64,000 nucleotides of DNA, taken from NCBI GenBank assembly GCA_035288905.1, contig DATDYZ010000001.1, positions 19,172 to 83,171 on the forward strand, read 5' to 3'. The translations under genes and the position numbers were made by a program. Under the pieces are notes generated by a model. That model made no database searches. It was given only the letters and a program-made list of their open reading frames with translations, and was not told the DNA's origin. The DNA comes from Candidatus Anderseniibacteriota bacterium. Lineage in GTDB: Bacteria; Patescibacteriota; Andersenbacteria; UBA10190. Below are positions 349-46,123 of this stretch, one piece after another (the stretch's first letter is position 1; each line of letters opens with the position of its first letter).

Positions 349-351
349 GTG

Positions 352-9099: not shown

Positions 9100-9114
9100 T
9101 ACTTTTTTACTCCT

Positions 9115-9450
9115 ATGAATCCAGTAAATCGCAAAAAACGTCATAAAAAAATCCGATCCCAAATGATTGGCAGCGCATCTCGTCCACGAGCATGTGTGTT
9201 TCGTAGCGCGCGTGGAATGGAAGTGCAGATTATTGACGACGCAAAAGGAGTTACTATTCTTTCTTCTCATATGATTGCAACAAAAAAGCTGAACAAAACA
9301 CAGCTTGCGCAGGATATGGGAAAGACACTGGCGACAGAAGCAAAAAAGAAAGGCATTACGAGTATTGTCTTTGACCGTGGAGGGTATATGTATCATGGAA
9401 GAGTAAAGGCACTCGCAGAAGCGATGCGTGAGGGTGGACTTTTGTTTTAA
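9115..9450 (+). CDS. rplR: 50S ribosomal protein L18
   Basis: [10 protein letters not shown]...[20 protein letters not shown]. Confidence 0.9.
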
Positions 9451-9467
9451 TACGGAACTATTTATTT

Positions 9468-9920: not shown

Positions 9921-9931
9921 TATATTTTTCT

Positions 9932-10387
9932 ATGTCACTATTTCAATTACCAAAAGTTACCGCAAAGAAGAAAAGCCTTGGAAGAGGACATGCTCGAAAT
10001 GGTGGGAAATCTGGTCGTGGTCAAAAAGGGCAAAAGTCCCGTGCGGGGTACAGCTCAAAGGCAGGATTTGAAGGTGGACAGACTCCTATCTATATGCGGT
10101 TTCCAAAAAATCGTGGAAGCAAGCAAATTAATCCATCCCAAATCGTAAAACCTATTGCTATTACGTTAGGCGTTCTTCGTGCATTTGAAGCAGGAAGTAT
10201 TGTAGGCCCGGGGCAATTGAAAAAACGAGGATACCTTGCAAGTCATATTGATACGGTAAAGCTTATCGGAACTGGCAAGCTTGAAGGCGCATATACGGTG
10301 CGTGTACATGGCGTAACTGCTGGCGCTAGAGCCGCTGTGGAAACTGCAGGTGGTAAAATAGAGCTTATCGCTACTATAAATGGTTGA
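9932..10387 (+). CDS. rplO: 50S ribosomal protein L15 (follows S5 directly, so no L30 gene)
   Basis: GRG.ARNGGKSGRGQKGQKSR. Only 11 nt separate the rpsE stop from this start. Confidence 0.9.
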   Translation: MSLFQLPKVTAKKKSLGRGHARNGGKSGRGQKGQKSRAGYSSKAGFEGGQTPIYMRFPKNRGSKQINPSQIVKPIAITLGVLRAFEAGSIVGPGQLKKRGYLASHIDTVKLIGTGKLEGAYTVRVHGVTAGARAAVETAGGKIELIATING

Positions 10388-11672: not shown

Positions 11673-12337
11673 AACTCCCAAAAGTTATTTATGTAATGGG
11701 AATGCCCGGCTCTGGCAAAGGAACACAAGCGGAACTGCTGTCGCATGATATCCGATATAACCAATTTAGTACGGGAAGTGCATTTCGTAGAATTGCACGC
11801 GAAGACTCTGATCTTGGGAGAAAGATGAAACACTTTGTAGATAACGGCTTTCTAACTCCTTCAGACATCGCTGCGCAGGTGGTCTTACAAGCAATCCATG
11901 AACTTATTACAGAAGGGGAAGGAATTGTATTTGATGGTACTCCGCGGACTCTGGAAGAAGCTCAAACGGTCAACTCTCGCCTTCTAGAAGAAGGGTATGG
12001 GGTTCCGCTTGTCATTTACCTTGAAGTAGATAAAGAAACAATGATCGAACGTAATAGTAAGCGCAGACTCTGTTTGGGTGTTGAAAAAGAATTTCCTGTC
12101 ACAACTCATAAAGATGAAATAGTATGCGCACGGCTCGGTGGAAATGTAGGCACTCGTCCTGATGATGAAAAAGAAAAATTTACGACTCGGTATAATCAAT
12201 TTATGGAACTTACGTATCCTGTTATTGTGGCTCATAAAGAAAAACACCCTGAACTCTTTTATCGAGTAAATGGATTACTCGAACCTCATCAAGTACATGC
12301 CTTGGTTATGGATATTACCAAGCAATTTGAAATGTAA
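11669..12337 (+). CDS. adk: Adenylate kinase
   Basis: GMPGSGKGTQAE P-loop and a DGTPRT motif. Confidence 0.93.
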   Translation: MKLPKVIYVMGMPGSGKGTQAELLSHDIRYNQFSTGSAFRRIAREDSDLGRKMKHFVDNGFLTPSDIAAQVVLQAIHELITEGEGIVFDGTPRTLEEAQTVNSRLLEEGYGVPLVIYLEVDKETMIERNSKRRLCLGVEKEFPVTTHKDEIVCARLGGNVGTRPDDEKEKFTTRYNQFMELTYPVIVAHKEKHPELFYRVNGLLEPHQVHALVMDITKQFEM

Positions 12338-12347
12338 AAAATTGAGT

Positions 12348-13106
12348 ATGGTTTCACTCAAAACTTCGCAAGAAATTGAACTCCTTGCAGAGGCGGGTGC
12401 GCTCTTAGGGGCGATACTTGATGTACTTACCAAAAAAGCAGCGGTAGGAGTGACGGGGACAGAATTAAATACCGTAGCTCACGATATGATGCAGCAAGCA
12501 GGCGCAATCCCTGTATTTTTAGGCTACGGCAAACCACCATATCCCGCAGCTATTTGTGTGTCCGTAAACGATCAAGTCGTTCATGGAATTCCAAATGATA
12601 TTCCATTTCAAGATGGGGATATAGTAAGCATAGACGCAGGACTTTCGCTGCATGGCTTAATTGTAGATAGCGCTCGAACTGTTGGCGTAGGCCATCTCAC
12701 TCCTATACAAAAAAAGCTTATGAACGTCACTAAGCAAGCGCTTGCAATTGGCATAGAACAAGCTCAAGTTGGAAACAGAACGGGAGACATTGGCTATGCC
12801 GTGCAATCATATGTCGAAAAAGAAGGATTTGAAGTTGTTCGTGCTTTAGTTGGCCATGGGGTAGGCCATGAATTGCACGAAGAACCACAAGTGCCCAACT
12901 TCGGATCAAAAGGGGCAGGTACGTTACTTACAGAGGGCATGGTACTAGCAATTGAGCCGATGGTAACGCAAGGCAGTCCCCATGTTACTACTTCTCCTGA
13001 TAAATGGAGTATTATTGCAGTCTCGGGAAAAGCATCTGCACACGAAGAACATACGATTGCAATTACAAAACAAGGGCCGAGGATCCTTACTATCGGAAAT
13101 GCATAA
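12348..13106 (+). CDS. map: Methionine aminopeptidase type I
   Basis: Pita-bread fold residues (D...D...H...E...E pattern: IDAG, HGVGHELHE, EPM). Trimmed from track ORF 12270. Confidence 0.92.
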   Translation: MVSLKTSQEIELLAEAGALLGAILDVLTKKAAVGVTGTELNTVAHDMMQQAGAIPVFLGYGKPPYPAAICVSVNDQVVHGIPNDIPFQDGDIVSIDAGLSLHGLIVDSARTVGVGHLTPIQKKLMNVTKQALAIGIEQAQVGNRTGDIGYAVQSYVEKEGFEVVRALVGHGVGHELHEEPQVPNFGSKGAGTLLTEGMVLAIEPMVTQGSPHVTTSPDKWSIIAVSGKASAHEEHTIAITKQGPRILTIGNA

Positions 13107-13632
13107 AATACCCACTAACGTCACCCCCTCCAGCTCCCCCTTGGTAAGGGGGAGAGGCGTCATTGCGTTAGACATCGGGAATCGTTATATTGGCGTTGCG
13201 GCTGCCGACCATGTGGATGCCTCGCTGGCGTATCGCTACACAACTATTGATCGTAAAACACAAGACGCACGAACAGTGCTTGCGGACATTATTACAAAAG
13301 AATCTATTGATACACTTGTGCTTGGTGTGCCGTATCATATACAAGATGGGAGTGAAACGCAGCAGACTAAAAAAACTCGTCAGTTTATAGCGTTACTAAA
13401 AAAAACATTTGACCCTGCTATTTCATACATTGAAGTTGATGAGACATTAACGTCTATGCAAGCAAAAGAAAATTTACAACACGAAGAATCGGATACGAAA
13501 GAAGAGCATGCAGAAGCCGCGCGTATTATGTTGCAAGAATTTCTTAGTTCCGCGACTGTCATGCCGGACTTGATCCGGCATCCAGGCGACGTGGATCCTT
13601 ACGTCAAGCCCGGGATGACAATGCTGTTATGA
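13099..13632 (+). CDS. ruvX: Putative pre-16S rRNA nuclease / Holliday junction resolvase-like RuvX (YqgF). Both termini are encoded by palindromic repeats.
   Basis: ALDIGNRYIGVAAAD, LVLGVP and the AEAARIMLQEFL end are YqgF-like. The first roughly 20 aa overlap repeat B and the last roughly 25 aa (MPDLIRHPGDVDPYVKPGMT) are encoded by repeat A, so the true start and stop are uncertain. Confidence 0.65.
   Translation: MHKIPTNVTPSSSPLVRGRGVIALDIGNRYIGVAAADHVDASLAYRYTTIDRKTQDARTVLADIITKESIDTLVLGVPYHIQDGSETQQTKKTRQFIALLKKTFDPAISYIEVDETLTSMQAKENLQHEESDTKEEHAEAARIMLQEFLSSATVMPDLIRHPGDVDPYVKPGMTMLL
13110..13172. repeat. Family B-variant palindromic repeat (CCCCCTCCAGCTCCCCC...GGGGGAGAGG)
   Basis: It shares its core with the insert inside hldD (59603..59688). 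Confidence 0.6.
13558..13620. repeat. Family A palindromic repeat copy
   Basis: GTCATGCCGGACTTGATCCGGCATCCAGGCGACGTGGATCC...CCCGGGATGACA. Confidence 0.8.
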
Positions 13633-14444
13633 CAAATATCAATACATATCTATCAAATATTCGAGAACGGGTTGATCAAGAACTTGATCGTTTACTTCCG
13701 CGTGCAGATGACTCTCCAAAGCGACTTCATGAGGCTATGCGATATAGCGTATTTGCGGGAGGAAGGCGTTTTCGACCAGCGCTGTGTATTGCGTCGTGTG
13801 AGGCAGTTGGTGGTACGTTTGAACAAGTGTTACTTGCCGCATGTGCAATTGAAGTATTACACACGTATACGTTAATTCATGATGACCTGCCAGCCATGGA
13901 CGATGATGATATGCGTCGTGGAAAGCCCTCAAGCCATAAAGCATTTGATGAGGGCACCGCAATACTTGCCGGCGATGCCTTACTTACGATTGCTTTTGAA
14001 TGGCTCGGGAAAACAGGCAATGCACGACTGGTACAAGAATTAGCGCAAGCAACAGGAAGTCTTGGAACAATAGGTGGACAAGCGGACGACCTTGATGCAA
14101 AAAATACGAGTATCTCTCAAGAAGCCGTACTGTCTATTCATGAAAGAAAGACAGCCGCTCTGTTTCGCGCTTCGTGTAGAATGGGCGGGATCACGGCAGA
14201 TGCATCAGGAAAACAAATAGACATGCTCGGGCAATTTGGCGAGCATCTTGGTATCGCATTCCAATTATTAGATGATATATGCGATACTGATCCAATTACT
14301 ATGAACGCGTATAGCAAAGATGAAGTTATATTGCTTGTGAAAAAATACGAGCAGTTATCGTACGATGCACTGAAAAAAATAAAAGGCGATACTTCGCAGA
14401 TGCAAGCACTTGCTCGTCATACATATGCATCTTTTAATATATGA
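13629..14444 (+). CDS. Polyprenyl diphosphate synthase (FPP/GGPP synthase family, trans-IPPS)
   Basis: Two Asp-rich motifs: LIHDDLPAMDDDDMRRGKP and FQLLDDICD. Confidence 0.85.
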   Translation: MTNINTYLSNIRERVDQELDRLLPRADDSPKRLHEAMRYSVFAGGRRFRPALCIASCEAVGGTFEQVLLAACAIEVLHTYTLIHDDLPAMDDDDMRRGKPSSHKAFDEGTAILAGDALLTIAFEWLGKTGNARLVQELAQATGSLGTIGGQADDLDAKNTSISQEAVLSIHERKTAALFRASCRMGGITADASGKQIDMLGQFGEHLGIAFQLLDDICDTDPITMNAYSKDEVILLVKKYEQLSYDALKKIKGDTSQMQALARHTYASFNI

Positions 14445-15139
14445 CCGAGAATATTCCAACGCATATTGCTATTATTCCTGATGGCAACAGGAGGTGGGCC
14501 ACGTCAAATTCAGCATCCGCTTTAGATGGACATACACAGGGAGCTGAAGTGATGCGGACTATCATGCCCCATGCAGCAGATGCGGGGGTGAAGTATGTTT
14601 CCGTATGGGGAATGTCACTCGATAACTTTACAAAACGAAGCTTGGGTGAAGTTGCTGGCCTGTTGGCACTGTTTCGATCAGAGTTTCTTGACCTCGCTAC
14701 AAGTAACGATATTCACTCACGGGAGGTCAGAATAAACGTCATTGGGCGTTGGAAAGAAAAGTTTCCACTGCCCGTGAGGAATGCAGTGCAAAAAGCAATT
14801 GATGCCACCAGCCACTACACTAATCATTATATGAATTTTTTTCTGGCATACGACGGCGTAGACGAAATGACGCAGGCAATTCAAAGCATTATTGCAAGTG
14901 GAGTGCACACCGTAACACCGGAAATTATTAAGCAGCATTTATTCACAAAAGATTTGCCACCTGTTGATTTAATCGTTCGCACAGGCGGAGAACCGCATTT
15001 ATCCGCAGGGTTTATGATGTGGGATGTAACCGATTCGCAGTTATGGTTTACCGAAAAATTGTGGCCGTCATTTACGACTACAGATTTAGACGATGCAATT
15101 ACAGAATACGCAAAAAGACAAAGAAGAAAAGGCGCATAG
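14441..15139 (+). CDS. uppS: Undecaprenyl diphosphate synthase (cis-prenyltransferase)
   Basis: HIAIIPDGNRRWA motif. The ATGA start overlaps the upstream stop. Confidence 0.9.
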   Translation: MTENIPTHIAIIPDGNRRWATSNSASALDGHTQGAEVMRTIMPHAADAGVKYVSVWGMSLDNFTKRSLGEVAGLLALFRSEFLDLATSNDIHSREVRINVIGRWKEKFPLPVRNAVQKAIDATSHYTNHYMNFFLAYDGVDEMTQAIQSIIASGVHTVTPEIIKQHLFTKDLPPVDLIVRTGGEPHLSAGFMMWDVTDSQLWFTEKLWPSFTTTDLDDAITEYAKRQRRKGA

Positions 15140-15146
15140 TAGTGTT

Positions 15147-15449
15147 CCCCTCTCCCCAATTGGGGAGAGGGTTAGGGTGAGGGCAACATCGATGCAATGC
15201 TCTGCACTACTCCATTAATATTTTTCATCACCTCATCATTCGTAAACCTCACAACTCGTATACCGCACGCATTTAGATATGTAGTACGTTCTGTATCATA
15301 TGCTTGTCCTTTCGTCGCACGGGTGTTGATCGTGCTCTGTTATGTAATACTCCCACAATCATATTCTACACCCAAGTCATATTCCTCTTGGGTTGCCCTC
15401 ACCCTCCCGCCTGTTGGCGAGGAGCCCTCTCCCCAATTGGGGAGAGGGG
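15147..15449. mobile_element. MITE-like composite element. Terminal perfect palindromes CCCTCTCCCCAATTGGGGAGAGGG with inner inverted repeats GGGTGAGGGCAAC / GTTGCCCTCACCC flank about 200 bp.
   Basis: Seen directly. Shorter versions of the same module occur at 29983, 58754, 61430 and 63736. Confidence 0.65.
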
Positions 15450-15490
15450 AACGCTACTTTGTAACTTATCCACAATATATTATTAGGGTG

Positions 15491-15499
15491 TGGTATAAT
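15491..15499 (+). promoter_or_regulatory. Extended -10 element (TGgTATAAT) ending 6 nt before the ATG at 15506, so the transcript may be leaderless
   Basis: TGGTATAAT is followed by tatttcATG. There is no Shine-Dalgarno sequence. Confidence 0.4.
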
Positions 15500-15505
15500 T
15501 ATTTC

Positions 15506-18500
15506 ATGATTAAATTCTTTACATATTTATTTGTTGTATTAAGTTTTTTTGGTGGAACTGTTGCGAATGCACAAGGGCCGTTTGGCAATCGTAGCGGTGC
15601 TGATCTTGACAACGCGTTAAACTCAGATGAAGGGTCATACTCTCCTCCTGCTATTTATATTAGAAATACGAAGGTAAATCCTGCCGATGCTTCGGGTAAG
15701 CTTACTGGTACGTTTACCATGATCAATAAAGATGATGAGACACTCGGAGATTTACGGTACCGCATTGAGCTCCTAGAAACATTGCCACCTGCCGAAAAGA
15801 ACACCTTTGTGTGGGATACTGGCCGCATGTTTGATACATACCTTTCTTCAGAAATATTTGCGCTTACTCCGGGAGAAGAGAAAAATATTTCGTTTACATA
15901 TACTCCCGCCAGTGTTCCTGCAGGAAACTATCGTTTGCAGATTCAGAGCACCACTTCACAGGGGAAGGATTTGGGTTGGGATACCGTACCTGTTACGTTG
16001 CAAGGAAGCGTTACGCAGTTTGTTGATCTTGTACCGGGGACTATTTTACTTCCGGAATTTCCGAATGAACTCATTCCACCGCTGTCTGGTCCAAACGTTT
16101 CCCCTAGTAGTCCTTTTACATTGCGCGCAACTGCAACAAACCCGGGGAATGCTTCTGTCACTGTTACTCCTACTGTTACGGTGTATGACTTTGCAACCTC
16201 AGGAGAAATTGTAAGTACACAGCCTATTGCTAACGTTGAACTTGTGCCTGGTAAAGCAACCGAACTGAGTATTCCTGTTACGGCAAGCGCTACTCCGGGT
16301 GTGTATTATGCAGTGCTTAGCTTGAATTCTGCGAACACAAGAGTTTCTGCGTTAGCAGAATATAGATGGGTAGTTCGAGGGGGTTCCGGAAAAATATTGT
16401 CAGCGAGAATTAAACAATTGCAAACAAAAGCAAACGAGAAAGTTTCTGTATCTGTAGAATATGCCGGCCCTGCAGACGCAGAGACGGAGATACAGGGCAA
16501 GATGACCATTGAAGTTGTAGATACACAAGGTGTTGCGGGAACATTTCAAGTTCCTGAAACGTTGGAACTTTCAGACGGTATTGGTGGCGGAGTTGCAGGA
16601 GTTACGCTTACGCGCGACCTTACCGGAGCTCCTGGTCTTCGCGTAACGCTTACTGATATACATGGAGCGGTACTGGATGTATATGAAGTAGCAATTCCTC
16701 TTTCCGGAGAACAATTACAGACGCTTGCGCAAGAAAATAAAGATATTGTCGCCAGTATAGCCAAGAGCAAAAGTTCTGTTTTATATATCCTTCTCGGTTC
16801 TGTTATACTCGGTGTATTTGCTCTTGTTCTCTATTTGCAGAAGAAAGGAGCCGCTGCGGCAACTGTTCTTGGGCTTTTCCTTGTCATCGCAGCTACGCTT
16901 AATGTGGCTCACGGTCAAAGCGGTGCTGGTAATGGGGTTGGTATTGAAGTTATAAGCCCAAAGATATTTTCTGGCGCTGGGGATAACGGATATGGCGGAT
17001 TGTGGGAGGCGGAGCCGAGCTTAACCGGCAAACCTCTTGTAGAAGTATTTATTAATAGTCCTGATCACGATGCTCCAGGTGGAACGTATGAAATGGATGC
17101 TGTTCTGTTTGGGTATCGGATAGAATATGGTGCTTGTGGAAATACTCCCCCAGAAGCATGGTTGAAGGTGCGCTTTGATCGCAATGGAGGAAAGCATAGT
17201 GACTTATTAGGTTCTGGTACGCCTAACTGGTTTCAGATTATTGACTTAAAATGGACGAACGGTTGTCAGTTTTCGTGGCAGTATTGTCTCCGTTCGGCTC
17301 AAGGGGAAGCGTTGCTGGATCTTTCTTCCTTGTCTCAAGCTGCGACAAGTACGACACTTCAAATAGGTTCATTCTGGGAGAACTTTGATGCAAGTGATGA
17401 AAGTTGTATTACGGGGCATTGCATTCCTGCTACTCCTTCGTTTACCCTCAGCGATTGGTTTGTAGTAAATCGCCATGCGCATATTGTGAACATGTGGATA
17501 AATCCGGTCGCAGTAGCACTACCCCCAAGTGTTGATCTTAAAATTAATGGTTCCGATAATCCTGCAGACGTGGTGGTGAATACAGGAATCACGCTTTCGT
17601 GGACTTCTTCACAAGTAAGCAGTTGTACAGCAACGATTGATTGGACTGGAGCAAAGCCAACGGCAGGTACGGGGAGCGCTACACCTACTCAGGTGAGAAC
17701 CTATACATACACCATTACATGCAGCGGTATTTCAGGCACAGCTACCGACACGGTAAGTATAAATTCTATAGCTGCTCCTCAAGTGGTAACGGTTGATCTT
17801 AAAATTAACGGTACTGATAGCCCTCCGAACGTAGCTTTGGGCAACTCAATCACCTTGTCGTGGACGGCTTCTGCAAATGCAAATACATGTGCTGCTACTG
17901 GTGATTGGGGCGGGTCAAAGAGTGTACCTACGGGGTCTCAAATAGATACTCCAGCACAGGCAAGAACATATACGTATGCAATTACGTGTACAAATACTGC
18001 CAGTGGTGCTACGGGTACAGATACGGTGAATATTGTGGTGGATGCGCCTAGCGGTGTTCCTATAGCAATCGCGAAGATGAGTATTGATGGAATAACGTAT
18101 AGTAACAGCATCACTGTTACGCAAAATGTTCCTTATACGATCTACCTTACTGCCGGAGAACATGGGAATCCTCCCGGAAGCTCTGATCCAGATGGGTGGG
18201 ATCATCCTCTGGCGGGAGTGTCTGAGGGTGGTAATATTAAATGGAATTCTGATCTTAATTTAGGTGCAGCTACGTTTGAAACAACGTATTCAAATCCTCA
18301 ATTTCCTACCGACGCTGATATGAACCTTGGGCAGAAGACATTTACACTTGCTCCAAGTGGTTCTCCGTATACATATAATTTGCTGCAGATAACGGATGCT
18401 ACTGGTAATGTGTCTCCTATCGGAACTGTCAATGTCACGGTTGTGTCTGCAACTCCATCACCAAGCCCTAGCCCGAGTCCATCATTTAATCCGGGCGGAG

Positions 18501-18520
18501 GATTTGAAGAAACAAGATAA
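15506..18520 (+). CDS. Large secreted/surface protein (1004 aa) with a signal peptide, two tandem repeats of about 80 aa (VDLKING.D.P..V......ITLSWT...C.AT.DW.G.K...G.....P.Q.RTYTY.ITC), an internal hydrophobic pair and a C-terminal PSPSPSPS linker
   Basis: Signal peptide MIKFFTYLFVVLSFFGGTVANAQG. The repeats are at about 17521-17760 and 17791-18040. Track ORF 15197 starts inside the MITE and was trimmed. Confidence 0.75.
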   Translation: MIKFFTYLFVVLSFFGGTVANAQGPFGNRSGADLDNALNSDEGSYSPPAIYIRNTKVNPADASGKLTGTFTMINKDDETLGDLRYRIELLETLPPAEKNTFVWDTGRMFDTYLSSEIFALTPGEEKNISFTYTPASVPAGNYRLQIQSTTSQGKDLGWDTVPVTLQGSVTQFVDLVPGTILLPEFPNELIPPLSGPNVSPSSPFTLRATATNPGNASVTVTPTVTVYDFATSGEIVSTQPIANVELVPGKATELSIPVTASATPGVYYAVLSLNSANTRVSALAEYRWVVRGGSGKILSARIKQLQTKANEKVSVSVEYAGPADAETEIQGKMTIEVVDTQGVAGTFQVPETLELSDGIGGGVAGVTLTRDLTGAPGLRVTLTDIHGAVLDVYEVAIPLSGEQLQTLAQENKDIVASIAKSKSSVLYILLGSVILGVFALVLYLQKKGAAAATVLGLFLVIAATLNVAHGQSGAGNGVGIEVISPKIFSGAGDNGYGGLWEAEPSLTGKPLVEVFINSPDHDAPGGTYEMDAVLFGYRIEYGACGNTPPEAWLKVRFDRNGGKHSDLLGSGTPNWFQIIDLKWTNGCQFSWQYCLRSAQGEALLDLSSLSQAATSTTLQIGSFWENFDASDESCITGHCIPATPSFTLSDWFVVNRHAHIVNMWINPVAVALPPSVDLKINGSDNPADVVVNTGITLSWTSSQVSSCTATIDWTGAKPTAGTGSATPTQVRTYTYTITCSGISGTATDTVSINSIAAPQVVTVDLKINGTDSPPNVALGNSITLSWTASANANTCAATGDWGGSKSVPTGSQIDTPAQARTYTYAITCTNTASGATGTDTVNIVVDAPSGVPIAIAKMSIDGITYSNSITVTQNVPYTIYLTAGEHGNPPGSSDPDGWDHPLAGVSEGGNIKWNSDLNLGAATFETTYSNPQFPTDADMNLGQKTFTLAPSGSPYTYNLLQITDATGNVSPIGTVNVTVVSATPSPSPSPSPSFNPGGGFEETR

Positions 18521-18530
18521 CAATTTGTAC

Positions 18531-18595
18531 TGTCATCCCGGGCTTGACCCGGGATCCAGGCGACGTGGATGCCGGCTCGGGGGCCGGCATGACAC
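18531..18595. repeat. Family A palindromic repeat between convergent genes
   Basis: TGTCATCCCGGGCTTGACCCGGGATCCAGGCGACGTGGATGCCGGCTCGGGGGCCGGCATGACAC. Confidence 0.8.
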
Positions 18596-19626
18596 TACAG
18601 AATCGTTTCGGGTAAACTTTGCTCTCGCAAGAACACCGCGGCGTCTTCTGGTAGCATGGTATTTATCTCTATTCCCGTTCCTAGTTCAAAACCTGCATAC
18701 GTAGAAAGACGAGGCATAATGGCGATGTGCCAGCGAAAATGTTGAAAGAGGCTTTTGTCGCATACAAACCCCGTTTCATCACATGGCGCAGAATGAATGT
18801 AGTAGTTATACGGCGGATCATTCAGCCCGGTATACATTTTGCCAAGTACTTGCTGGAGTGCCTGTGCAAGTGCGCTGCGCTCTGATGGGCCAATATCTTC
18901 AAAAAACGGATTAGACTGCCTTGGCATAATCCATGTTTCAAACGGTACTCGGGAAGCGTATGGGCAAAATGCTGTAAAATATTCATTTTCAAAGACTATT
19001 CTTTTTTTATGTTCACGTTCATAATCCAGGATTATAGTAAACGCTTTTTCTCCGTGCTTTTTTGCGTATCTTTCTGTTCCGTGAAGCAAATCTGCAATAT
19101 CGCTGGGGAGTACAGGGACGGAAAATATTTGGTGATGAGGATGTTCGAGCGAGGCACCCGCTTCTCTTCCGTGATTTTTAATGATTTGAATATAGTTTAC
19201 GGCAGGTAATGATTTGAGCTGGCGATACCGAAGCACAAGCGCTTCTAGTTCTAGTTCAATAATGTGCTGATCTACGGTCGCATCGTTTTGATTGTGGTAG
19301 CGGGTGGCAAGTAATTCATGGTGACCCACAGCATTGGTTGCAAGGTACGGACCTTCTTTCCATGAACGAAATTCTTCGCTTGGTATAAATGCAGGGTATT
19401 TGTTTTGGAATATATGCATCTGCCACGTAGCGTCCGCGTCGGGAAGTCGCAAAATATCTGGTTCTTGCGGAAACTTTGCCAGGTTGCAAAACGGACAATC
19501 ATTTTTGTATCGTTCTTGGGAATGGCGAAGAGATTTTTCTTTCGAAAAAGAATCAGGCCGTTTTGCACGCTCTGTAGCAATAGCGACCCATTTTTCCGTT
19601 ATAGGGTTTTGGCGAAGCTCACCCAT
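18595..19626 (-). CDS. galT: Galactose-1-phosphate uridylyltransferase (HIT family)
   Basis: CPFC zinc motif, HPHHQIF (the HxHxQ active site) and two HIT-like halves. Confidence 0.85.
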   Translation of the reverse strand: MGELRQNPITEKWVAIATERAKRPDSFSKEKSLRHSQERYKNDCPFCNLAKFPQEPDILRLPDADATWQMHIFQNKYPAFIPSEEFRSWKEGPYLATNAVGHHELLATRYHNQNDATVDQHIIELELEALVLRYRQLKSLPAVNYIQIIKNHGREAGASLEHPHHQIFSVPVLPSDIADLLHGTERYAKKHGEKAFTIILDYEREHKKRIVFENEYFTAFCPYASRVPFETWIMPRQSNPFFEDIGPSERSALAQALQQVLGKMYTGLNDPPYNYYIHSAPCDETGFVCDKSLFQHFRWHIAIMPRLSTYAGFELGTGIEINTMLPEDAAVFLREQSLPETIL

Positions 19627-20353
19627 TATATATGCCCTTTGTCATATTTAGGCGTACTTGAACCACTTCTTTGAGAACTTCCAGGTATGCGCTTCCTGAT
19701 ACTTTGCTGTTTGGGTCGTTGATCCATCGCACGGGTTGTTCTGAAATTTTATATCCTTTCATTCTGGCAACAGCTAAAGCCTCTACATCAAATCCCCAGC
19801 GGTCTATGGTGAGATACGGGAACACGGCGTCGGACGCTTTTTTTGTAAACAATTTAAAACCAGCCTGGGTGTCTTTAATGCCTGGAACTGCCCAGAACTG
19901 GATCCATATATTACCTAAATCTCCTAACAGTTCTTTCCATTTTGGTTGGTGTACAGAAATTTCCGCTCCAGCAACATCGCGAGAACCTATAACAACATCG
20001 AACCCTTGCGCAACAAGTGGAATAAACTTTTCTGCATGCTCAATGCCAGTGGAATTATCTGCATCCATAAATATACGTATTTCTCCTTGCACGTGGGTCA
20101 TGCCGTATCGTACTGCATAGCCCTTGCCTTTGTTACCCCCATAATGCAAGAGACGAACGCGCGGATCTTCTATACCCATGCTTCGTACAATATCCGCAGT
20201 CTTGTCACTTGATCCGTCATTTACTACAGCAATTTCCCATGTGTACGGCTGCTTTTTTAAATATCCGATTGTTGCTCGCAGCGTGTGAGGTAGTCGCTTC
20301 TCTTCGTTATACGCAGGGATAACAACCGAAAGATACGGTAAGGGATTGTTCAT
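19619..20353 (-). CDS. GT2 family glycosyltransferase (polyprenyl-phosphate hexosyltransferase-like, no TM tail)
   Basis: LSVVIPAYNEE and VVNDGSSDKT..., plus a DAD motif in FMDADNS. Confidence 0.8.
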   Translation of the reverse strand: MNNPLPYLSVVIPAYNEEKRLPHTLRATIGYLKKQPYTWEIAVVNDGSSDKTADIVRSMGIEDPRVRLLHYGGNKGKGYAVRYGMTHVQGEIRIFMDADNSTGIEHAEKFIPLVAQGFDVVIGSRDVAGAEISVHQPKWKELLGDLGNIWIQFWAVPGIKDTQAGFKLFTKKASDAVFPYLTIDRWGFDVEALAVARMKGYKISEQPVRWINDPNSKVSGSAYLEVLKEVVQVRLNMTKGIYNG

Positions 20354-26552: not shown

Positions 26553-28220
26553 ATGAAAAATGGGATTTGGAATATAGTTGCAGGGGATACTGTTATTGAG
26601 GATCAGGATGAATTGATTCGTGTGCTACTTCATAATCGCAACATCACCTCTGAGGGCAGCGAAGCTTTTTTTTCTTCTTCGTATATTCGTGATATTCATG
26701 ATCCATATGATTTGTATGATATGGAAAAAGCAGTGGAGCGCGTATATCGCGCAATAAAAAAGCAAGAAAGAATAGTTGTATATGGCGATTATGATGCAGA
26801 TGGTGTTACATCTACGGCAATTATGGTAGAAACACTTACTGCACTTGGTGCTCATGTATTTCCGTATTTGCCGCACAGGTACGATGATGGATACGGTTTA
26901 CATGGGAAAGTGTTGGAACAAATGCTCTCTGAATTTGAATTAGTAATCACTGTTGATTGTGGAGTGAGCAACCGGGAAGAAATAGCTATGCTACAAGCAG
27001 CTAAAAAAGACGTTATTATTGTTGACCATCACGAAATTCCTGAACAGCTTCCAGTTGCCTATGCAATTTTGCACCCACGGCATCCGAAAGGATTATATAG
27101 TTTTGGGCATCTGTGTGGGGCTGGTATGGCGTGGAAGTTTGCACAGGCATTGTTTCGCCATGCAGATTCTCTGTTTGCATCAGATCCTGATCGAGAAAAG
27201 TGGTTGCTTGATATTGTAATGATTGGGACTATTGCGGATGTAATGCCACTTGTTGGAGAAAATCGTGCCATTGTTCGATTTGGTAAAGATGTGTTACTAC
27301 GTACAAAGCATCCAGGAATTGCAGCACTACTGAAAGAATCTCGCATTAACGTATCAACGATAACTGCGGAAGATATTGCGTTTCGAATAGTGCCTTTGTT
27401 AAATGCCGCTGGGAGAATTGGCCACCCACAATCGGCTCTCAATGCGCTTATTGCGAAAACAAGCGATCAAGCAGATGCTGCAGTAAAAAAGCTAGTGCAG
27501 ATGAATAATGAGAGGCGGACACTGACAAAGAAAATGATGGATGAGGCGAATATCGAAATAGATCATAGTCTGCCGTTTGTGTTTATAGCTAATAGTAATT
27601 GGCCAGCAGGCATTGTTGGGCTTGTGGCTGGCCGCTTGGCTTCGCAGTTTGGAAAACCTGCATTTGTGGTAGGGGGGCATAGCTCACTATCACACTCTGT
27701 AGGGTCTGCACGGGGAGGCGGCAAAATAAACATTATGTCTGCGTTAGAAACAGTTCGCCACCATACTCTTAAGTTGGGCGGGCATAAGGCAGCAGCAGGG
27801 TTTTCTGTATTGCCCGAATATATAGATCGTATGAAACATGGGTTACGAGAGTATTTTGAATCTCAAGTATTAGAGCAGTCTCCGGTAGTTCATGAAGCCG
27901 ATGCTGTTATTTCTTCGCAACTTGTGTCGTGGGATACGGCGCGGGCACTTACAAAGTTTGAGCCGTTTGGTGAAGCGAACACAAGGCCATCTTTTGTTTT
28001 AAAGGGTTTGCGGCTTTTAGAGCGCAGAACGGTTGGGAAATCAAACGATCATATAAAGGCAAAACTTCTGGTAGGCGACCGTGAAATAGATGCAATAGGG
28101 TTTGGGCTCGGGGGGCAGGTACGTGTTCTTAAAAACACTGTAGACGTCTTGGCAAGTATAGGCGTAAATGAATTTCGTGGGCGAGAAAGCCTAGAGCTTC
28201 GTCTTACGGATATACGCTAA
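26553..28220 (+). CDS. recJ: Single-stranded-DNA-specific exonuclease RecJ (DHH/DHHA1)
   Basis: VYGDYDADGVTS, VDCG and DHH motifs. Confidence 0.87.
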   Translation: MKNGIWNIVAGDTVIEDQDELIRVLLHNRNITSEGSEAFFSSSYIRDIHDPYDLYDMEKAVERVYRAIKKQERIVVYGDYDADGVTSTAIMVETLTALGAHVFPYLPHRYDDGYGLHGKVLEQMLSEFELVITVDCGVSNREEIAMLQAAKKDVIIVDHHEIPEQLPVAYAILHPRHPKGLYSFGHLCGAGMAWKFAQALFRHADSLFASDPDREKWLLDIVMIGTIADVMPLVGENRAIVRFGKDVLLRTKHPGIAALLKESRINVSTITAEDIAFRIVPLLNAAGRIGHPQSALNALIAKTSDQADAAVKKLVQMNNERRTLTKKMMDEANIEIDHSLPFVFIANSNWPAGIVGLVAGRLASQFGKPAFVVGGHSSLSHSVGSARGGGKINIMSALETVRHHTLKLGGHKAAAGFSVLPEYIDRMKHGLREYFESQVLEQSPVVHEADAVISSQLVSWDTARALTKFEPFGEANTRPSFVLKGLRLLERRTVGKSNDHIKAKLLVGDREIDAIGFGLGGQVRVLKNTVDVLASIGVNEFRGRESLELRLTDIR

Positions 28221-28830
28221 TCATCATCAGGCCTGTCCCAATTGCAAGTCGTATTGCATGAGCGCGTGGTTCTTTTTGCACTACTGTAAAAAATTCAGTG
28301 AGTTTTTTGGCATGTGATAGGGTATTGTCCGCGATGATAATTCCATGCGGTGTAATTATTTGCATGGCATACTGAAAGTAGAGGGCATATTCTTCTTTGT
28401 TTGCATCGAGAAAAATGAAGTCGAAAGACGGAGGCTGTTTGTTTAGGTTGTCATTCCGGGCTTGCTTGCCGGCCATAGCCTTGGCGTCGGCTGGACCCGG
28501 AATCCACGCGCCTGGATCCCGGCTCGGGGGCCGGGATGACACTGCTAATTGCGACATGATTTCCACCGCATCTCCTTGTATCACCTCGATAGTTTCTGAT
28601 AATCCTTCTGTTGCAATATTTTCTTTTGCTAATTTCACTCGTTCGTCAAAAAATTCTATTGTCGTTATGTTTCCACCATAGAGAGATGCAACGTTTCCCA
28701 TAAGAATTGCTGAATATCCATTTGATGTACCAACCTCTAAAATATTCTTCGGTTTTTGTGCATGAATGAGAGCCTGGAGCACAGCGCCAGAATTTGGGTC
28801 AATATTCCAGTACTCATCTTGTGGTTTCAT
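28204..28830 (-). CDS. Class I SAM-dependent O-methyltransferase (CCoAOMT/YrrM-like) carrying an in-frame Family A repeat insertion
   Basis: ILEVGTSNGYS motif I and FDFIFLDANKEEY. Between them is VSSRPPSRDPGAWIPGPADAKAMAGKQARNDN, encoded by repeat A at 28450..28552. Confidence 0.8.
   Translation of the reverse strand: MKPQDEYWNIDPNSGAVLQALIHAQKPKNILEVGTSNGYSAILMGNVASLYGGNITTIEFFDERVKLAKENIATEGLSETIEVIQGDAVEIMSQLAVSSRPPSRDPGAWIPGPADAKAMAGKQARNDNLNKQPPSFDFIFLDANKEEYALYFQYAMQIITPHGIIIADNTLSHAKKLTEFFTVVQKEPRAHAIRLAIGTGLMMISVYP
28450..28552. repeat. Family A palindromic repeat (long form) inside the O-methyltransferase CDS
   Basis: GTCATTCCGGGC...CCGGCTCGGGGGCCGGGATGACAC. Confidence 0.8.
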
Positions 28831-30030: not shown

Positions 30031-30444
30031 ATGAAACGAGCGACGTTATTCACAGACGGCGGGGCGAGGGGTAACCCGGGTCCCGCCGCAATCGGTTTTG
30101 TGCTTACTGGTATTGGAAGCGCGCCTATTTTATATAAAGAATATATTGGGAAAGGCACGAACAACCAGGCAGAGTATCGTGCGTTATTAGCGGGTATTAC
30201 TCGTGCAAAAAAAGAGGGAGTAAAAGATTTGTTGTGCTATTTAGATAGCGAATTAGTGGTAAAGCAGGTGCGAGGAGAATACAGAGTTAAAAATGAAGAG
30301 CTAAAACTTTTGCTTACAGAAATAAAAAAACTACTACCCGTTTTTGATTCTATAACATTCCAACACGTTCCGCGCGCTAAAAACGCTATTGCGGATAAGC
30401 TGGTGAATGAGGCGTTGGACTCCAATTTTGCAGATGGACTATAA
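30031..30444 (+). CDS. rnhA: Ribonuclease HI
   Basis: FTDGGARGNPGPAA, NNQAEYRAL and the DSELVVKQ catalytic DEDD pattern. Confidence 0.9.
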   Translation: MKRATLFTDGGARGNPGPAAIGFVLTGIGSAPILYKEYIGKGTNNQAEYRALLAGITRAKKEGVKDLLCYLDSELVVKQVRGEYRVKNEELKLLLTEIKKLLPVFDSITFQHVPRAKNAIADKLVNEALDSNFADGL

Positions 30445-30782
30445 GCCGGATTCTGTTAAAGGCAATCATCTGTCTTGTTCTGCTATCGCTAGCAGAATCT
30501 TTGCCCTCTACCTGCCCCGTTATTCACGAAGCGACTTGAGGTTGCACTCGGTGGGGTTTGCACCCTCGCCGTATTACTACGGCGCGGCGTGGGCTCTTAC
30601 CCCACGATTTCACCATTGCTAATAAAAGCTGTTTGTTTCTGTTGCGCTCTTCGCCCTGCAAGCAGGGTCCCTAGGCTTGCGCCTGGCAGACGTTATCTGC
30701 CACTGTTTTCTTGAGTGTCCGGACTTTCCTCTCAGGCCCTTCGATTTCTCTCAGGGTAAAGCGATTGCCCATCCATCTGCGT
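30425..30782 (-). ncRNA. rnpB: RNase P RNA (bacterial type), antisense to the last about 20 nt of rnhA
   Basis: The minus strand reads GAGGAAAGUCCGGAC (P4 5' strand), GGUAAGAGCCCAC, and ACAGAAUCCGGCUUAUAG near the 3' end. The P1 helix GCAGAUGGA / UCCAUCUGC defines the ends. Confidence 0.75.
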
Positions 30783-36269: not shown

Positions 36270-36295
36270 TTATTCCAAGGCAAAGCCTTGGAATT
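36270..36295. repeat. REP-C palindrome TTCCAAGGCAAAGCCTTGGAA (inverted orientation relative to the two other copies)
   Basis: Perfect hairpin. Confidence 0.8.
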
Positions 36296-36322: not shown

Positions 36323-36961
36323 ATGATTGGGATTATATCTATGAACTGTAACGAATATCACATAATCGGAATGAGTCCTGGTAATAGCTATTTTAAGGAT
36401 GAAGAAATTCTTTACCTGCTCAAAACTACAATTGATCGTTTTGGTAAGGTAGCTATTTTAATTGCGGATATTCCTGCAATATCTACATACATAGCTTTGG
36501 GGTATCCAGAAAATCGAGCACGGCGTGATAAGGCCATACCAAAAGGCAATGCGTTAAAAAATCGCGTACGAAAAATAATGGCCAAGCTTGGTTATTCTGA
36601 GGATATTGTCAGAATTATTGATTGGGAACATGAAGTAGAAAATAATTCCGAGTATCAGAAAAGCTATCAAAATGTACTTGAATTATACAAGCAGAATCGA
36701 GCGTTTCATAGCGCTGCAGATACTACTACCTACTTAGTGCTTGAAAGCTCAAAAAAGGATTTTGATGACATTGAACTCGCCACTGGTATTGCGGTTCATT
36801 ATCTTTTATCAGAGTTTGCTTTTTTGGAGTTTGCGCCGAGCTTTTTGGAAGCAACAAAAGTTATTTATGTTTATCATAAAAACTGGCAAGTATACGAAGA
36901 TTATATCGCAGGTAAATTTGATCATGTCGTACGTCCAAATTTAGGTTTTCTATTACTATAG
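36323..36961 (+). CDS. Cyclodipeptide synthase (CDPS, AlbC/YvmC family)-like protein
   Basis: HIIGMSPGNSYF aligns with the AlbC HALIGISAGNSYF region (catalytic Ser). TYLVLE gives a Y..x3..E pair, and a later VYHKN gives a YH. Length (212 aa) is in the CDPS range. Confidence 0.55.
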   Translation: MIGIISMNCNEYHIIGMSPGNSYFKDEEILYLLKTTIDRFGKVAILIADIPAISTYIALGYPENRARRDKAIPKGNALKNRVRKIMAKLGYSEDIVRIIDWEHEVENNSEYQKSYQNVLELYKQNRAFHSAADTTTYLVLESSKKDFDDIELATGIAVHYLLSEFAFLEFAPSFLEATKVIYVYHKNWQVYEDYIAGKFDHVVRPNLGFLLL

Positions 36962-36980: not shown

Positions 36981-37010
36981 CTTATTCCAAGGCTTTGCCT
37001 TGGAATATAG
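36981..37010. repeat. REP-C palindrome TTCCAAGGCTTTGCCTTGGAA
   Basis: Perfect hairpin. Confidence 0.8.
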
Positions 37011-37035: not shown

Positions 37036-37701
37036 ATGAGTTATCGGCATGTGGGCTTTGCACCAGGTGAGATATATCACATATTCACTCGTGGCGTTGA
37101 GAAAAGAAAGATCTTTCTCTATGATGCTGATCGAATCCGTTTTCTTTCGCTCCTTGTGCATTGTTTACCACAAGGTCCAATCCAAAGTTTTTCTGTCGCG
37201 CAAAAACTCAAGCGAAAAACTGAGATTACCGCTTCTGGCGAAGGGCTAGTAGATATTCTCTGTTACTGCCTTATGAATAATCATATTCACCTGCTCCTGA
37301 AAGAAAATGTCGAAAAAGGTATTTCTATATACATGCAACGACTGCTCACTAGCTACGCTATGTATTTTAACAGAAGATCTGAGCGTTCAGGATCCTTATT
37401 TGTAAATCCGTTTAAGGCGGTTGTAGTTGATGCTGACGATCAATTCCTGCACGTCACTCGATATATTCATCTAAATCCGTTTGTTGCGCATCTGGTTGAA
37501 GACCCCTTTGGATATATTTGGTCTTCTTTACATGAATACACAGCTGCTTCACAAGAAAGTAAAATTTGTCACCCTGAATTACTCCGAGGAATAATGGGAC
37601 AACAGGAGTATCACCGTTTTGTGCTAGATCATGCCGACTATTCGCAGTCGCTTGTAGATAATTATCACCTTCTTATCGACATTGATGAAGAAGTGTCATA
37701 A
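37036..37701 (+). CDS. IS200/IS605-like HuH Y1 transposase (REP-associated tyrosine transposase, RAYT-like)
   Basis: HuH motif NNHIHLLL and the conserved tyrosine region TRYIHLNP. Flanked by REP-C copies. Confidence 0.8.
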   Translation: MSYRHVGFAPGEIYHIFTRGVEKRKIFLYDADRIRFLSLLVHCLPQGPIQSFSVAQKLKRKTEITASGEGLVDILCYCLMNNHIHLLLKENVEKGISIYMQRLLTSYAMYFNRRSERSGSLFVNPFKAVVVDADDQFLHVTRYIHLNPFVAHLVEDPFGYIWSSLHEYTAASQESKICHPELLRGIMGQQEYHRFVLDHADYSQSLVDNYHLLIDIDEEVS

Positions 37702-37705: not shown

Positions 37706-37735
37706 GTTATTCCAAGGCTTTGCCTTGGAATGCGT
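37706..37735. repeat. REP-C palindrome copy
   Basis: TTCCAAGGCTTTGCCTTGGAA. Confidence 0.8.
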
Positions 37736-43814: not shown

Positions 43815-43847
43815 GGAATCATTCCGACACCTGGTGTCGGAATCTTG
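43815..43847. repeat. REP-D palindrome TTCCGACACCTGGTGTCGGAA
   Basis: Perfect hairpin. Confidence 0.8.
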
Positions 43848-43863: not shown

Positions 43864-44523
43864 ATGGGGTATCGAATAAATGGGTTTGAGCGGGGCGGTG
43901 TATACCACATATTTACGCGCGGTGTGGAGAAGAGGGAAATTTTTATGGATCATTCCGATCGTGTACGGTTTATCTCGCAAATGATTCATTGCTTGCCCGA
44001 TGAGCCTATTCTGAATTTTTCGCATGCACAAAAACTAAAACGAAAGTTGATAATAACCAGCGAAGGGGAGGGGTTAGCGGATATTCTTTGTTATTGCTTA
44101 ATGAATAATCATGTTCATTTTTTGCTCCGAGAAAATGTTGATGGTGGTATTTCGCGCTATATGCAACGGCTGCTCAATAGCTTCGCTCGGTATTTTAATG
44201 TTAAATACGAGCGCACTGGGGCGTTATTTGCGGGTCCGTTTCGGTCTGTTCCTGTGGTAAGTGATGATCAGCTTTTGCACGTAAGTAGGTATATTCATCT
44301 TAATCCTCATGCTGCGCATATAGTAAAGGATGTCTTCGCATATCCCTGGTCCTCGTTACGTGCATACTTAAACGACGAAGATTCGAAACTTTATTGCCAC
44401 GCTGACTTTCTTGCGTCATTAATGGATAAAAAAGAATATAAAAAATTCGTTTTCGATCAAGTGAGTTACGAACAATCCTTAGCTGCTTTTCCTGAACTTC
44501 TTTTAGATGATGACTATACTTAA
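43864..44523 (+). CDS. HuH Y1 transposase (RAYT-like), second paralog
   Basis: VYHIFTRGVEKREIF, NNHVHFLL and SRYIHLNPH. Trimmed from track ORF 43834, which starts in the REP. Confidence 0.8.
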   Translation: MGYRINGFERGGVYHIFTRGVEKREIFMDHSDRVRFISQMIHCLPDEPILNFSHAQKLKRKLIITSEGEGLADILCYCLMNNHVHFLLRENVDGGISRYMQRLLNSFARYFNVKYERTGALFAGPFRSVPVVSDDQLLHVSRYIHLNPHAAHIVKDVFAYPWSSLRAYLNDEDSKLYCHADFLASLMDKKEYKKFVFDQVSYEQSLAAFPELLLDDDYT

Positions 44524-44570
44524 TTCCGACACCTGGTGTCGGAATAAGTTCCCTGGTGTCGGAATAAGTT
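44521..44570. repeat. REP-D palindrome plus tandem half-copy
   Basis: TTCCGACACCTGGTGTCGGAATAAGTTCCCTGGTGTCGGAATAAGTT. Confidence 0.75.
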
Positions 44571-44572
44571 CT

Positions 44573-44865
44573 TTTCTGGCCCGTTTCGTGCTGTAGCTGT
44601 TGTACGTGATGAGCAATTTCTTCACGTAAGTAGGTATATTCACTTGAATCCATATGCGGCCCATATGACAAAGGATCCGCTTACATATAAATGGTCTTCT
44701 CTTGGCGAGTACTTTTTAGATGAAAGCAATAAAACAGCTTCTTGCCACACGAACTTTCTATTATCGTTAATAAGCTCTAAAGAATACAGAAGTTTTGTTG
44801 CAGACTACGCAGAGTATGCTCAGTCTCTCGCAAGCTACCCAGAATTGCTTATAGACGATGAATAA
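44573..44865 (+). pseudogene. C-terminal fragment of a third RAYT paralog (lacks the HuH N-terminal half)
   Basis: It translates to FSGPFRAVAVVRDEQFLHVSRYIHLNPYAAHM..., which parallels residues about 125-229 of the upstream transposase. There is no N-terminal domain. Confidence 0.65.
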
Positions 44866-44870
44866 TTTGT

Positions 44871-44893
44871 ATTCCAACACCTGGTGTTGGAAT
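44871..44893. repeat. REP-D variant TTCCAACACCTGGTGTTGGAA
   Basis: Hairpin. Confidence 0.75.
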
Positions 44894-46079: not shown

Positions 46080-46123
46080 AAGATTGAAATAATTAGAAAA
46101 CCGTGGTATTTTCATGGAATTGT

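Follow-up and report, generated by a model that had tools for sequence, protein, structure and literature searches.

The 64-kb stretch of DNA analyzed here in full (the window; positions 19,172 to 83,171 of contig DATDYZ010000001.1, from a Candidatus Anderseniibacteriota bacterium in the Patescibacteria) carries on its minus strand, at 28204-28830, a gene for a 208-amino acid (aa) class I S-adenosylmethionine (SAM)-dependent O-methyltransferase (OMT) of the YrrM/Methyltransf_3 type. Inserted in frame within this gene is a copy of a palindromic repeat, here termed Family A. Direct reading, pattern matches, alignment, and RNA and DNA folds place the element at 28449-28541 of the plus strand, where its 93 nucleotides (nt), running from TGTCAT to ATGACA, read TGTCATTCCGGGCTTG, CTTGCCGGCCATAGCCTTGGCGTCGGCTGG and ACCCGGAATCCACGCGCCTGGATCCCGGCTCGGGGGCCGGGATGACA in succession. 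The presence of an in-frame Family A repeat in the minus-strand OMT, proposed in the initial annotation, is borne out by this reading, by the open reading frame (ORF) list and by the ortholog alignment described below. The span proposed for it (28450-28552) ran about 10 nt too far at its right end, and its estimated length of about 100 nt and addition of about 30 aa are here refined to 93 nt and 31 codons.

Since the element comprises exactly 31 codons, the OMT reading frame is kept; it is entered at phase 1 of codon 97, supplies residues ~97-128 and contains no stop codon in the frame used. The peptide that it encodes is (V)SSRPPSRDPGAWIPGPADAKAMAGKQARND(N), and a protein search with the insert peptide returned no candidates. 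No other long ORF is present at the site, and the Pfam match of the protein to PF01596 (Methyltransf_3, E = 5e-23) is divided in two stretches by the insert. The window OMT is 34-37 aa longer than its insert-free orthologs of 171-174 aa, and the element is GC-rich compared with the AT-richer gene around it, in a window with a GC content of ~40-50% throughout and a positive GC skew. The 208-aa protein is identical on seven contigs, and the gene with its insert shows 100% nucleotide identity across three independent metagenome assemblies, which excludes an assembly artefact.

The remaining four Family A copies of the window, all annotated on the plus strand, lie at gene ends, as had been described. 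A short-form dimer at 352-412 begins 3 nt past the rpsJ stop codon, a second one at 18531-18594 occupies the spacer between two convergent genes (15197-18520 on the plus strand and GalT, 18595-19626, on the minus strand), and a single arm at 47947-47975 begins 8 nt past the lepA stop codon. The copy assigned to the 3' end of ruvX is a short-form dimer with a decayed arm B, located at 13557-13620, and does code the C-terminal ~24 aa of RuvX, directly before the stop codon; in this 157-residue protein the Pfam RuvX domain stops at residue 130. Head-to-head dimers, with tags outside and CCA tails inside, make up four of the five loci, and at four of the five the element either lies 0-8 nt from a stop codon or overlaps the end of a gene.

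Each Family A arm opens with a TGTC tag that remains unpaired; a stem of 8-9 bp comes next, its first pairs being A-T and T-A, then a short loop and finally CCA as the tail. In the OMT, arm A (28449-28506, plus strand) presents the TGTC tag, a ATTCCGGG/CCCGGAAT stem and the CCA tail, with its CTTGA loop broken by a nested module, and arm B (28513-28541, minus strand) combines the same tag and tail with a ATCCCGGC/GCCGGGAT stem and a CCCCGA loop. The TGTC tag is found in all eight intact arms of the window and in OMT arm A, and CGTC occurs in one arm of the related element of an OMT ortholog (P0032). The window stems follow AT(C/T/G)CCGG(G/A/C) and its complement over 8 bp, with compensatory changes within the window. 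The arm A loop is a 5-nt CTTGA in four copies and reaches 35 nt in the OMT owing to the nested module, while that of arm B measures 6 nt, or 4 nt when a G-T pair is included. Eight of nine arms have CCA after the stem (CTA in arm B of the copy at 352). Short forms span 61-64 nt, and the OMT copy corresponds to a 63-nt form plus 30 nt. As DNA, the OMT element folds into two local hairpins on both strands, closed by terminal GTCAT/ATGAC pairing.

A covariance model built from ten aligned individual arms, and run against the window with filters off, detected all eight intact arms, with scores of 34-53 bits, and recovered the interrupted arm in two weak fragments; no other match rose above noise. 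OMT arm B was detected at 28510-28543 on the minus strand (49.1 bits, E = 1.6e-12), and arm A as weak halves at 28447-28477 and 28483-28509 because of its 30-nt interruption. The opposite strand of each hairpin scored ~11 bits, and the arms are therefore oriented units. Furthermore, a 12-mer search returned 10 matches against 3.8 expected, a count reached in none of 100 shuffles. The arm with the CTTGA loop lies on the plus strand at the left in all five loci regardless of gene orientation; this may reflect a replication-strand bias, the GC skew of the window being positive, and five of five is not significant by itself. A 4-nt inverted complementarity was also seen to flank three copies (TTAG/CTAA, TGTA/TACA and GTAA/TTAC), an anecdotal feature that is absent from the cross-phylum copies described below.

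The OMT copy had been termed the long form. It does not represent a longer member of the family but the 63-nt short form with a foreign 30-nt module in one hairpin loop: the GC-rich sequence CTTGCCGGCCATAGCCTTGGCGTCGGCTGG, at 28465-28494 of the plus strand, lies within the arm A loop, codes PADAKAMAGK on the OMT coding strand and is missing from the other four copies in the alignment. The arrangement would be accounted for by insertion into the arm A loop of a second, unrelated 30-nt unit, a multiple of three in length. A 24-nt core of this module is identical in three unrelated metagenome contigs (L131 5469-5492, L132 1198-1221 and L133 8082-8105), where its three contexts are a DnaG primase ORF, read in the same frame (PADAKAMAGK), a membrane-protein ORF, in opposite orientation, and the centre of a long palindrome in a contig of 66% GC. 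Diverged relatives of the module occur in the window at 4747-4770, in a C-terminal extension of ribosomal protein L22 (coding PAVAKAKAGK), and at 58845-58868, in an intergenic position, and further diverged relatives are present in related loci. Searches with the 30-nt module gave no match in viral contigs and no significant match in plasmids.

The closest homologs of the window OMT are YrrM-type O-methyltransferases from Patescibacteria, mostly of 171-174 aa. In an alignment of 35 sequences, comprising the window OMT and 34 others, 22 of the 34 orthologs pass from the GDAxEIL helix to the FDFIFLDANK strand without any additional sequence, in agreement with the position proposed for the insert in the initial annotation, which had suggested this comparison. 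The P0001 ortholog is syntenic (peptidase M10, OMT and convergent RecJ) and lacks the insert; in its DNA, GAGAT is directly followed by ATTGAAAAG at the site of the window element. The other 12 orthologs carry extra sequence at this same position, the alphaC-beta4 loop, and none carries any elsewhere (among the loop-insert orthologs are P0003, P0005, P0012, P0015, P0016, P0021, P0024, P0027 and P0032; loci L124-L127 and L001).

The five loop inserts that could be read from contigs are all GC-rich hairpin structures of differing families. P0032 contains a dimer of Ssn-related motifs (SRM), the class to which Family A is assigned below; P0003, P0012 and P0015 contain CCCCTCCTTACGAAGGAGGGG-type hairpins, and P0005 a single 13-bp hairpin. 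The standing of these other inserts as repeat families is based on hairpin structure only, and no further copies of them were found within 14-17 kb of their loci. P0032 is the sole ortholog with a segment related to that of the window, and there the segment has the same two-hairpin palindrome; no ortholog was found to share the segment in a non-palindromic form. The window element and that of P0032 are alike in orientation and frame, and each lies 23 nt from the FD codons. Their left junctions are 15 nt apart, and the protein sequence flanking the two inserts is only ~46-55% identical. In a rough neighbor-joining tree, insert types appear scattered among insert-free orthologs, with the two SRM carriers in distant clades and the same insert type recurring across distant clades (the window and P0032 share SRM, P0012 and P0021 the PSFVRRG type, and P0015 and P0027 the SPSYEGE type). 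Searches of 37 kb of nearer-relative loci (L002, L126 and L127) yielded no Family A copy, and the family therefore looks lineage-specific.

The clustering of inserts at one loop may reflect selective filtering, with only this loop tolerating them and the search seeing only intact ORFs, or a true site preference. In the latter case, the DNA coding the alphaC-beta4 loop would be a preferred landing site by virtue of its sequence or single-strand structure, drawing several hairpin families and with earlier inserts serving as landing pads. The restriction of extra sequence to this loop in 12 of 34 orthologs, the hairpin nature of all five sequenced inserts despite their different families, the recurrence of insert types in clades separated by insert-free orthologs, and the agreement of the window and P0032 elements in orientation, frame and right-hand distance are all in line with targeting, as is the nested module, which represents an element inserted into an element. 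Protein searches, however, recover only intact ORFs, and survivorship bias alone can yield one apparently hot loop. Insertion of repetitive extragenic palindromic (REP) sequences at the same recB site has been reported for Xanthomonas, in two species and with no sign that the site is targeted (Di Nocera, De Gregorio & Rocco 2013, BMC Genomics 14:522, PMC3733652). In addition, the left junctions are offset by 15 nt, no conserved target motif was identified, and the tree is crude. We regard a targeted loop as a genuine possibility, though one that we do not favor.

The similarities between the window and P0032 copies could also derive from a single entry of an SRM dimer into the OMT of their common ancestor, followed by precise deletion in most descendants and replacement in some. 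The agreement in family, orientation, frame and right-hand distance in spite of the divergence of the flanking sequence is compatible with this scenario, and palindromes are known to be prone to deletion, a point discussed for REPs (PMC3733652). The carriers nevertheless belong to distant clades with many insert-free orthologs between them, and many independent precise losses would therefore be needed. The stems of the non-CTTGA arms differ as well (ATCCCGGC in the window and ATCCCGTG in P0032), as do their loops, and the 37 kb of nearer-relative loci mentioned above yielded no Family A copy. An ancestral insertion hence appears quite unlikely.

A broader proposal combines the loop with the nested module. 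Under it, a layered system of very small GC-rich hairpin modules would be remodelling Patescibacteria proteins: the alphaC-beta4 loop would be truly and repeatedly targeted, receiving inserts from at least five unrelated element families and, in distant lineages, independent inserts of one and the same family, and the 30-nt module would be an undescribed, spacer-sized mobile unit spreading in frame between unrelated genes and organisms (DnaG, the membrane protein, possibly the L22 relative, and the loop of another repeat). We consider this proposal doubtful.

The distribution of the Family A arm beyond the window was explored by scanning one genome per species with the pattern GTCATNCCGGRCTTGAYCCGGNATCCA. 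With ~48 bits of information in this pattern, matches by chance are not to be expected. The 27-nt arm was found in at least 120 stretches of species-representative genomes and in 78 stretches of viral or proviral contigs. The matches listed, to which the arm statistics below also refer, include Alpha-, Beta-, Gamma- and Deltaproteobacteria and Patescibacteria (Nomurabacteria, Azambacteria and Saccharimonadales among them), together with Nitrospirota, Chloroflexota, Omnitrophota, Binatia, Zixibacteria, Cloacimonadota, Bipolaricaulota, Ignavibacteria, Campylobacterota and Rickettsiales, and cultured isolates are represented by Sphingopyxis witflariensis DSM 14551 and Jiella pacifica. Two IMG/VR contigs (L160 and L210) were observed to hold 6-8 copies of the arm within 7-8 kb; tblastn identified neither an Ssn-like nor a Y1 transposase gene beside these copies.

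The general layout among these matches is GTCAT-hairpin-ATCCA, a spacer of 0-77 nt and TGGAT-hairpin-ATGAC, the second stem often being different. Positions N6 and N22 form a Watson-Crick pair in 124 of 133 arms, in all four types (C:G, G:C, T:A and A:T), and the R11:Y17 pair is A:T in 84, G:C in 41, G:T in 8 and A:C in none of the 133. This is clear covariation with a strand bias, and the class is under structural constraint. In nine Desulfobacterota loci (L007, L008, L045, L075, L076, L085, L089, L098 and L108) the SRM dimer was seen to be embedded in a longer conserved element that carries inverted repeats on its outside, CTCGTAAAAAGTC...GACTTTTTACGAG, which suggests a composite built around the hairpin pair.

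In-frame copies were sought by screening the fetched loci for long ORFs running through the 27-mer and checking candidates with Pfam. They were identified in TruB of Sphingopyxis macrogoltabida (L092), in a radical-SAM protein from a Nitrospirota metagenome-assembled genome (MAG; L063), in a MiaB-like protein with two inserts (L105) and, as a single hairpin, in HrpB from a Campylobacteraceae MAG (L062). The OMT case is thus a further example of a recurrent and published behaviour.

Hairpins of this type have been linked to small GIY-YIG proteins. The Neisseria repeat dRS3 was extended to an oriented 28-nt sequence, NTS (CGTCATTCCCGCGMAVGCGGGAATCYRG), and to the degenerate SRMs, which follow the search sequence HGTCWY N(0-2) YYVSBRH N(0-5) WNVSBRG N(0-2) RNCYNB (Chenal et al. 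2025, Nat Commun 16:2388, PMC11893778) and flank genes for Ssn proteins (cd10448), as in the NTS-ssn-NTS arrangement (PMC11893778). As a regular expression, this sequence matched three window arms (352, 18531 and 47947), against 0.15 expected in shuffles, and the remaining Family A arms miss it by one or two positions. Moreover, the 27-mer adjoins GIY-YIG ORFs of ~90-95 aa (PF01541, E = 8e-16), one in Agrobacterium sp. GD03872 (L109) and two in S. witflariensis (L051). The shared architecture, the SRM pattern matches and the location of the 27-mer beside GIY-YIG ORFs therefore place Family A in the class formed by CGTC-tagged REPs and SRMs.

An adjacent Ssn-like gene was found in 2 of 198 SRM-bearing loci, a proportion to be expected if genomes hold hundreds of motifs and few ssn genes. 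SsnA binds the hairpin only as single-stranded DNA, and not as RNA, and cuts a few nucleotides upstream of it; in N. meningitidis, SsnA cutting at NTS lowers the rate of integration of NTS-containing transforming DNA (PMC11893778). By analogy, the Family A hairpin may be recognized as single-stranded DNA by an enzyme acting in trans, for which the Ssn nuclease is the published candidate, and the family could spread via a single-stranded-DNA intermediate, with copies persisting where they would do least harm, for example immediately after stop codons or at protein loops that accommodate inserts.

The window itself offers another candidate for mobilization. It contains two full genes (37036-37701 and 43864-44514) and one fragment (44569-44856) resembling REP-associated tyrosine transposases (RAYT) of the IS200-like Y1 type, supported by Pfam Y1_Tnp (E = 1.6e-7) and NCBIfam REP_Tyr_transpos (43-48 bits). 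Family A might hence be the REP of a REPtron-type system mobilized by these transposases and not by Ssn. Each of the Y1 genes is flanked by ATTCC...GGAAT hairpins, whose stem ends are common to Family A, and an Ssn gene was not found in the 64 kb. The flanking hairpins, however, form families of their own (ATTCCAAGGCTTTGCCTTGGAAT and ATTCCGACACCTGGTGTCGGAAT), which have neither the TGTC tag nor the CCA tail and reach no more than 8 bits with the Family A model, and no Family A arm lies beside any Y1 gene. The NCBIfam scores fall below the curated cutoff of 80, and CGTC REPs show no association with tyrosine transposases in any species (PMC3733652). Mobilization of Family A by the resident Y1 transposases consequently seems unlikely. 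As to their own surroundings, the first Y1 gene and a cyclodipeptide-synthase gene (36323-36961) make up a unit bracketed by three ATTCCAAGGCTTTGCCTTGGAAT copies (36272-36294, 36984-37006 and 37709-37731), and the other Y1 genes are flanked by ATTCCGACACCTGGTGTCGGAAT-type hairpins (~43820-43841, 44523-44546 and 44869-44893).

An AlphaFold2 model of the OMT has a mean pLDDT of 89, with the core above 94, and assigns values of 50-70 to residues ~98-135, located between a helix (88-97) and a strand (136-141). The insert had been placed between the catalytic-region helix and the FDFIFLDANK motif with the ORF left open, and the model and the preserved frame agree with this location. All the invariant columns of the 35-sequence alignment are kept in the window OMT, including D142 and K145 of the DANK motif, D168 and N169. 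By analogy with the standard class I fold, the alphaC-beta4 loop would be situated by the N-terminal end of beta4, on the side of the fold facing away from the SAM- and metal-binding site, and the OMT probably tolerates the insert for this reason. The insert would then be translated and accommodated as a disordered surface loop of ~31 residues, and the conserved sequence and predicted structure suggest that it is probably tolerated as selfish or neutral DNA, with no adaptation involved.

A functional insert would act either as a structured RNA element in the mRNA, affecting stability or processing or causing a translational pause, or through a peptide conferring a new property. The RNA fold advised in the initial annotation shows that the mRNA-sense strand of the element folds at -49 kcal/mol (z = -2.8 against shuffles), the excess of G:T over A:C at the R11:Y17 pair suggests a strand-specific constraint compatible with RNA, and an RNA-level action of REPs has often been argued (PMC3733652). 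A strand bias of this kind is nonetheless expected for an enzyme specific for single-stranded DNA, and SsnA shows no RNA binding (PMC11893778). In addition, the element matches no Rfam family: at gathering thresholds only RNase P was detected in the window, and a permissive scan of 28380-28620 yielded chance-level matches only. With regard to a peptide function, the inserted segment is modelled with low confidence, and the inserts of other orthologs at the same loop are unrelated in sequence, which argues against a specific role of the peptide. A function for the insert is thus very unlikely.

The family had also been described as terminator-like. No copy is followed by a T-run, and a role as intrinsic terminator is rejected on these grounds. 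A terminator scan of positions 1-20000 listed no Family A copy other than a spurious overlap at 18540-18513, and the copy at 352 is followed by a separate, classical terminator hairpin.

Overall, these data make it very probable that Family A belongs to the CGTC/TGTC-tagged REP class, which includes Neisseria dRS3/NTS, the SRMs and Rickettsia RPE-4 and RPE-6, and that a non-autonomous head-to-head dimer of this class inserted into a Patescibacteria OMT, where it is tolerated as selfish or neutral DNA. Several observations weigh against this interpretation. No Ssn-like GIY-YIG gene was found in the window, either with a motif regular expression or by tblastn, in which the L109 ORF was the useful query, and the published Ssn data concern hairpin binding and cutting, not transposition (PMC11893778). 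The OMT arms themselves miss the strict SRM pattern, arm B having C where R is called for and arm A being interrupted. Direct repeats or a target-site duplication flank none of the five Family A copies, and the insertion junctions given here are provisional. The neutrality of the insert would follow from sequence conservation and predicted structure only, and the occurrence of hairpin inserts in the same loop of many orthologs could reflect targeting or function rather than tolerance.

Other repeats and RNA genes were noted in the window. The lepA gene (46103-47938) presents an in-frame GC-rich insert, TRPSPPATAGPSPRTGEGS, at 46661-46712, between the GTPase domain and domain 2, made up of two hairpins (CCCTGCC-AC-GGCAGGG and CCCTCTCCC-AGAAC-GGGAGAGGG). 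A second palindrome family, CCCTCTCCCCAATTGGGGAGAGGG, occurs as perfect 24-mers at 15148-15171, 15425-15448, 61432-61455, 63738-63761, 58753-58776 and 63821-63848, and the 1107-aa ORF (15197-18520) contains one of these copies in its N-terminal part. A bacterial RNase P class A RNA is encoded at 30426-30780 on the minus strand (Rfam, 211 bits).

The use of REP dimers as in-frame coding inserts is already published, and current understanding is unchanged by the OMT case. What appears to be new here is the Patescibacteria host genome, the OMT as host gene, the nested 30-nt module and the variety of hairpin inserts at one loop, with at least five different ones in other orthologs. The analysis extends to the Patescibacteria a pan-bacterial hairpin class encompassing CGTC REPs, dRS3/NTS, SRMs, RPE-4 and RPE-6. 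The small genomes of this group are usually regarded as streamlined. Repeat-derived peptide segments in housekeeping enzymes can be mistaken for lineage-specific domains and can split domain matches. Many Patescibacteria are thought to depend on DNA uptake, and Ssn and NTS have been proposed to modulate transformation; the abundance of the motif in these organisms could hence be of interest in this respect. Furthermore, the repeated use of one loop in one enzyme constitutes a natural experiment on site preference versus selective filtering.

Several groups of small bacterial repeats share features with Family A. Like the MITEs (miniature inverted-repeat transposable elements) Correia, ERIC and RUP, it is a small non-autonomous repeat with inverted ends, and some MITEs are also found in frame within genes. 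Unlike MITEs, it has no target-site duplication and no related insertion sequence in the window; at 61-64 nt it is shorter than typical MITEs, and it consists of two autonomous hairpins. The GTAG REPs and bacterial interspersed mosaic elements (BIMEs) of REPtrons are likewise short GC-rich palindromes, often arranged as inverted pairs near gene ends, and RAYT-like genes with flanking hairpins are present in the window. Family A, however, lacks the GTAG tag, and the RAYT-like genes of the window are flanked by other hairpin families.

Rickettsia palindromic elements (RPEs), which Ogata et al. reportedly described in 2000 and 2002, are said to occur in frame in protein-coding genes, at permissive sites where they are kept as an extra peptide. 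The OMT insert resembles them in being an in-frame palindromic repeat that leaves the host ORF intact. RPE-1 is longer and codes ~45-50 aa. The RPE host is an obligate intracellular alphaproteobacterium, whereas that of Family A is a member of the Patescibacteria. A link between Family A and RPEs is proposed solely on the ground that RPE-4 and RPE-6 have been equated with CGTC REPs: CGTC-1 corresponds to Neisseria dRS3, and CGTC-1 and CGTC-4 to Rickettsia RPE-6 and RPE-4 (PMC3733652).

Architecture and siting also agree with those of the CGTC-tagged REPs themselves. Their four families (CGTC-1 to CGTC-4) have a CGTC, often TGTC, tag, stems of 8-9 bp beginning with AT, loops of 4-5 nt and CCA as the tail; the prevailing form is a head-to-head dimer with outer tags, copies lie at most 20 bp from ORF 3' ends, and some dimers are intragenic and code 20-30 aa, including those in sphingomonad TruB genes (PMC3733652). 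No dedicated transposase was found for them (PMC3733652). Family A shares the tag, the stem, the CCA tail, the heterodimeric head-to-head arms, the siting at gene 3' ends and the intragenic dimer, and the dual behaviour recognized in the initial annotation, as an intergenic REP-like element near gene 3' ends and as a coding insert, agrees with that published for the class (PMC3733652). The OMT copy codes 31 aa, or 21 without the nested module, against the 20-30 aa of intragenic CGTC-REP dimers, and TruB is a host common to the sphingomonad CGTC REPs and the Sphingopyxis copy found here. Family A departs from the class in the 6-nt loop of arm B, in the 30-nt foreign module of the OMT arm A and in its new host gene, and the published survey did not cover Patescibacteria (PMC3733652).

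The oriented NTS and the SRMs complete this comparison. In-frame copies are not described in the main text of the SRM study, where the words "intragenic", "intergenic" and "Patescibacteria" do not appear (PMC11893778). NTS (CGTCATTCCCGCGMAVGCGGGAATCYRG) and Family A arm A (TGTCATCCCGGGCTTGACCCGGGATCCAG) have a common layout, and the wide cross-phylum distribution of the SRMs is shared by the Family A arm.

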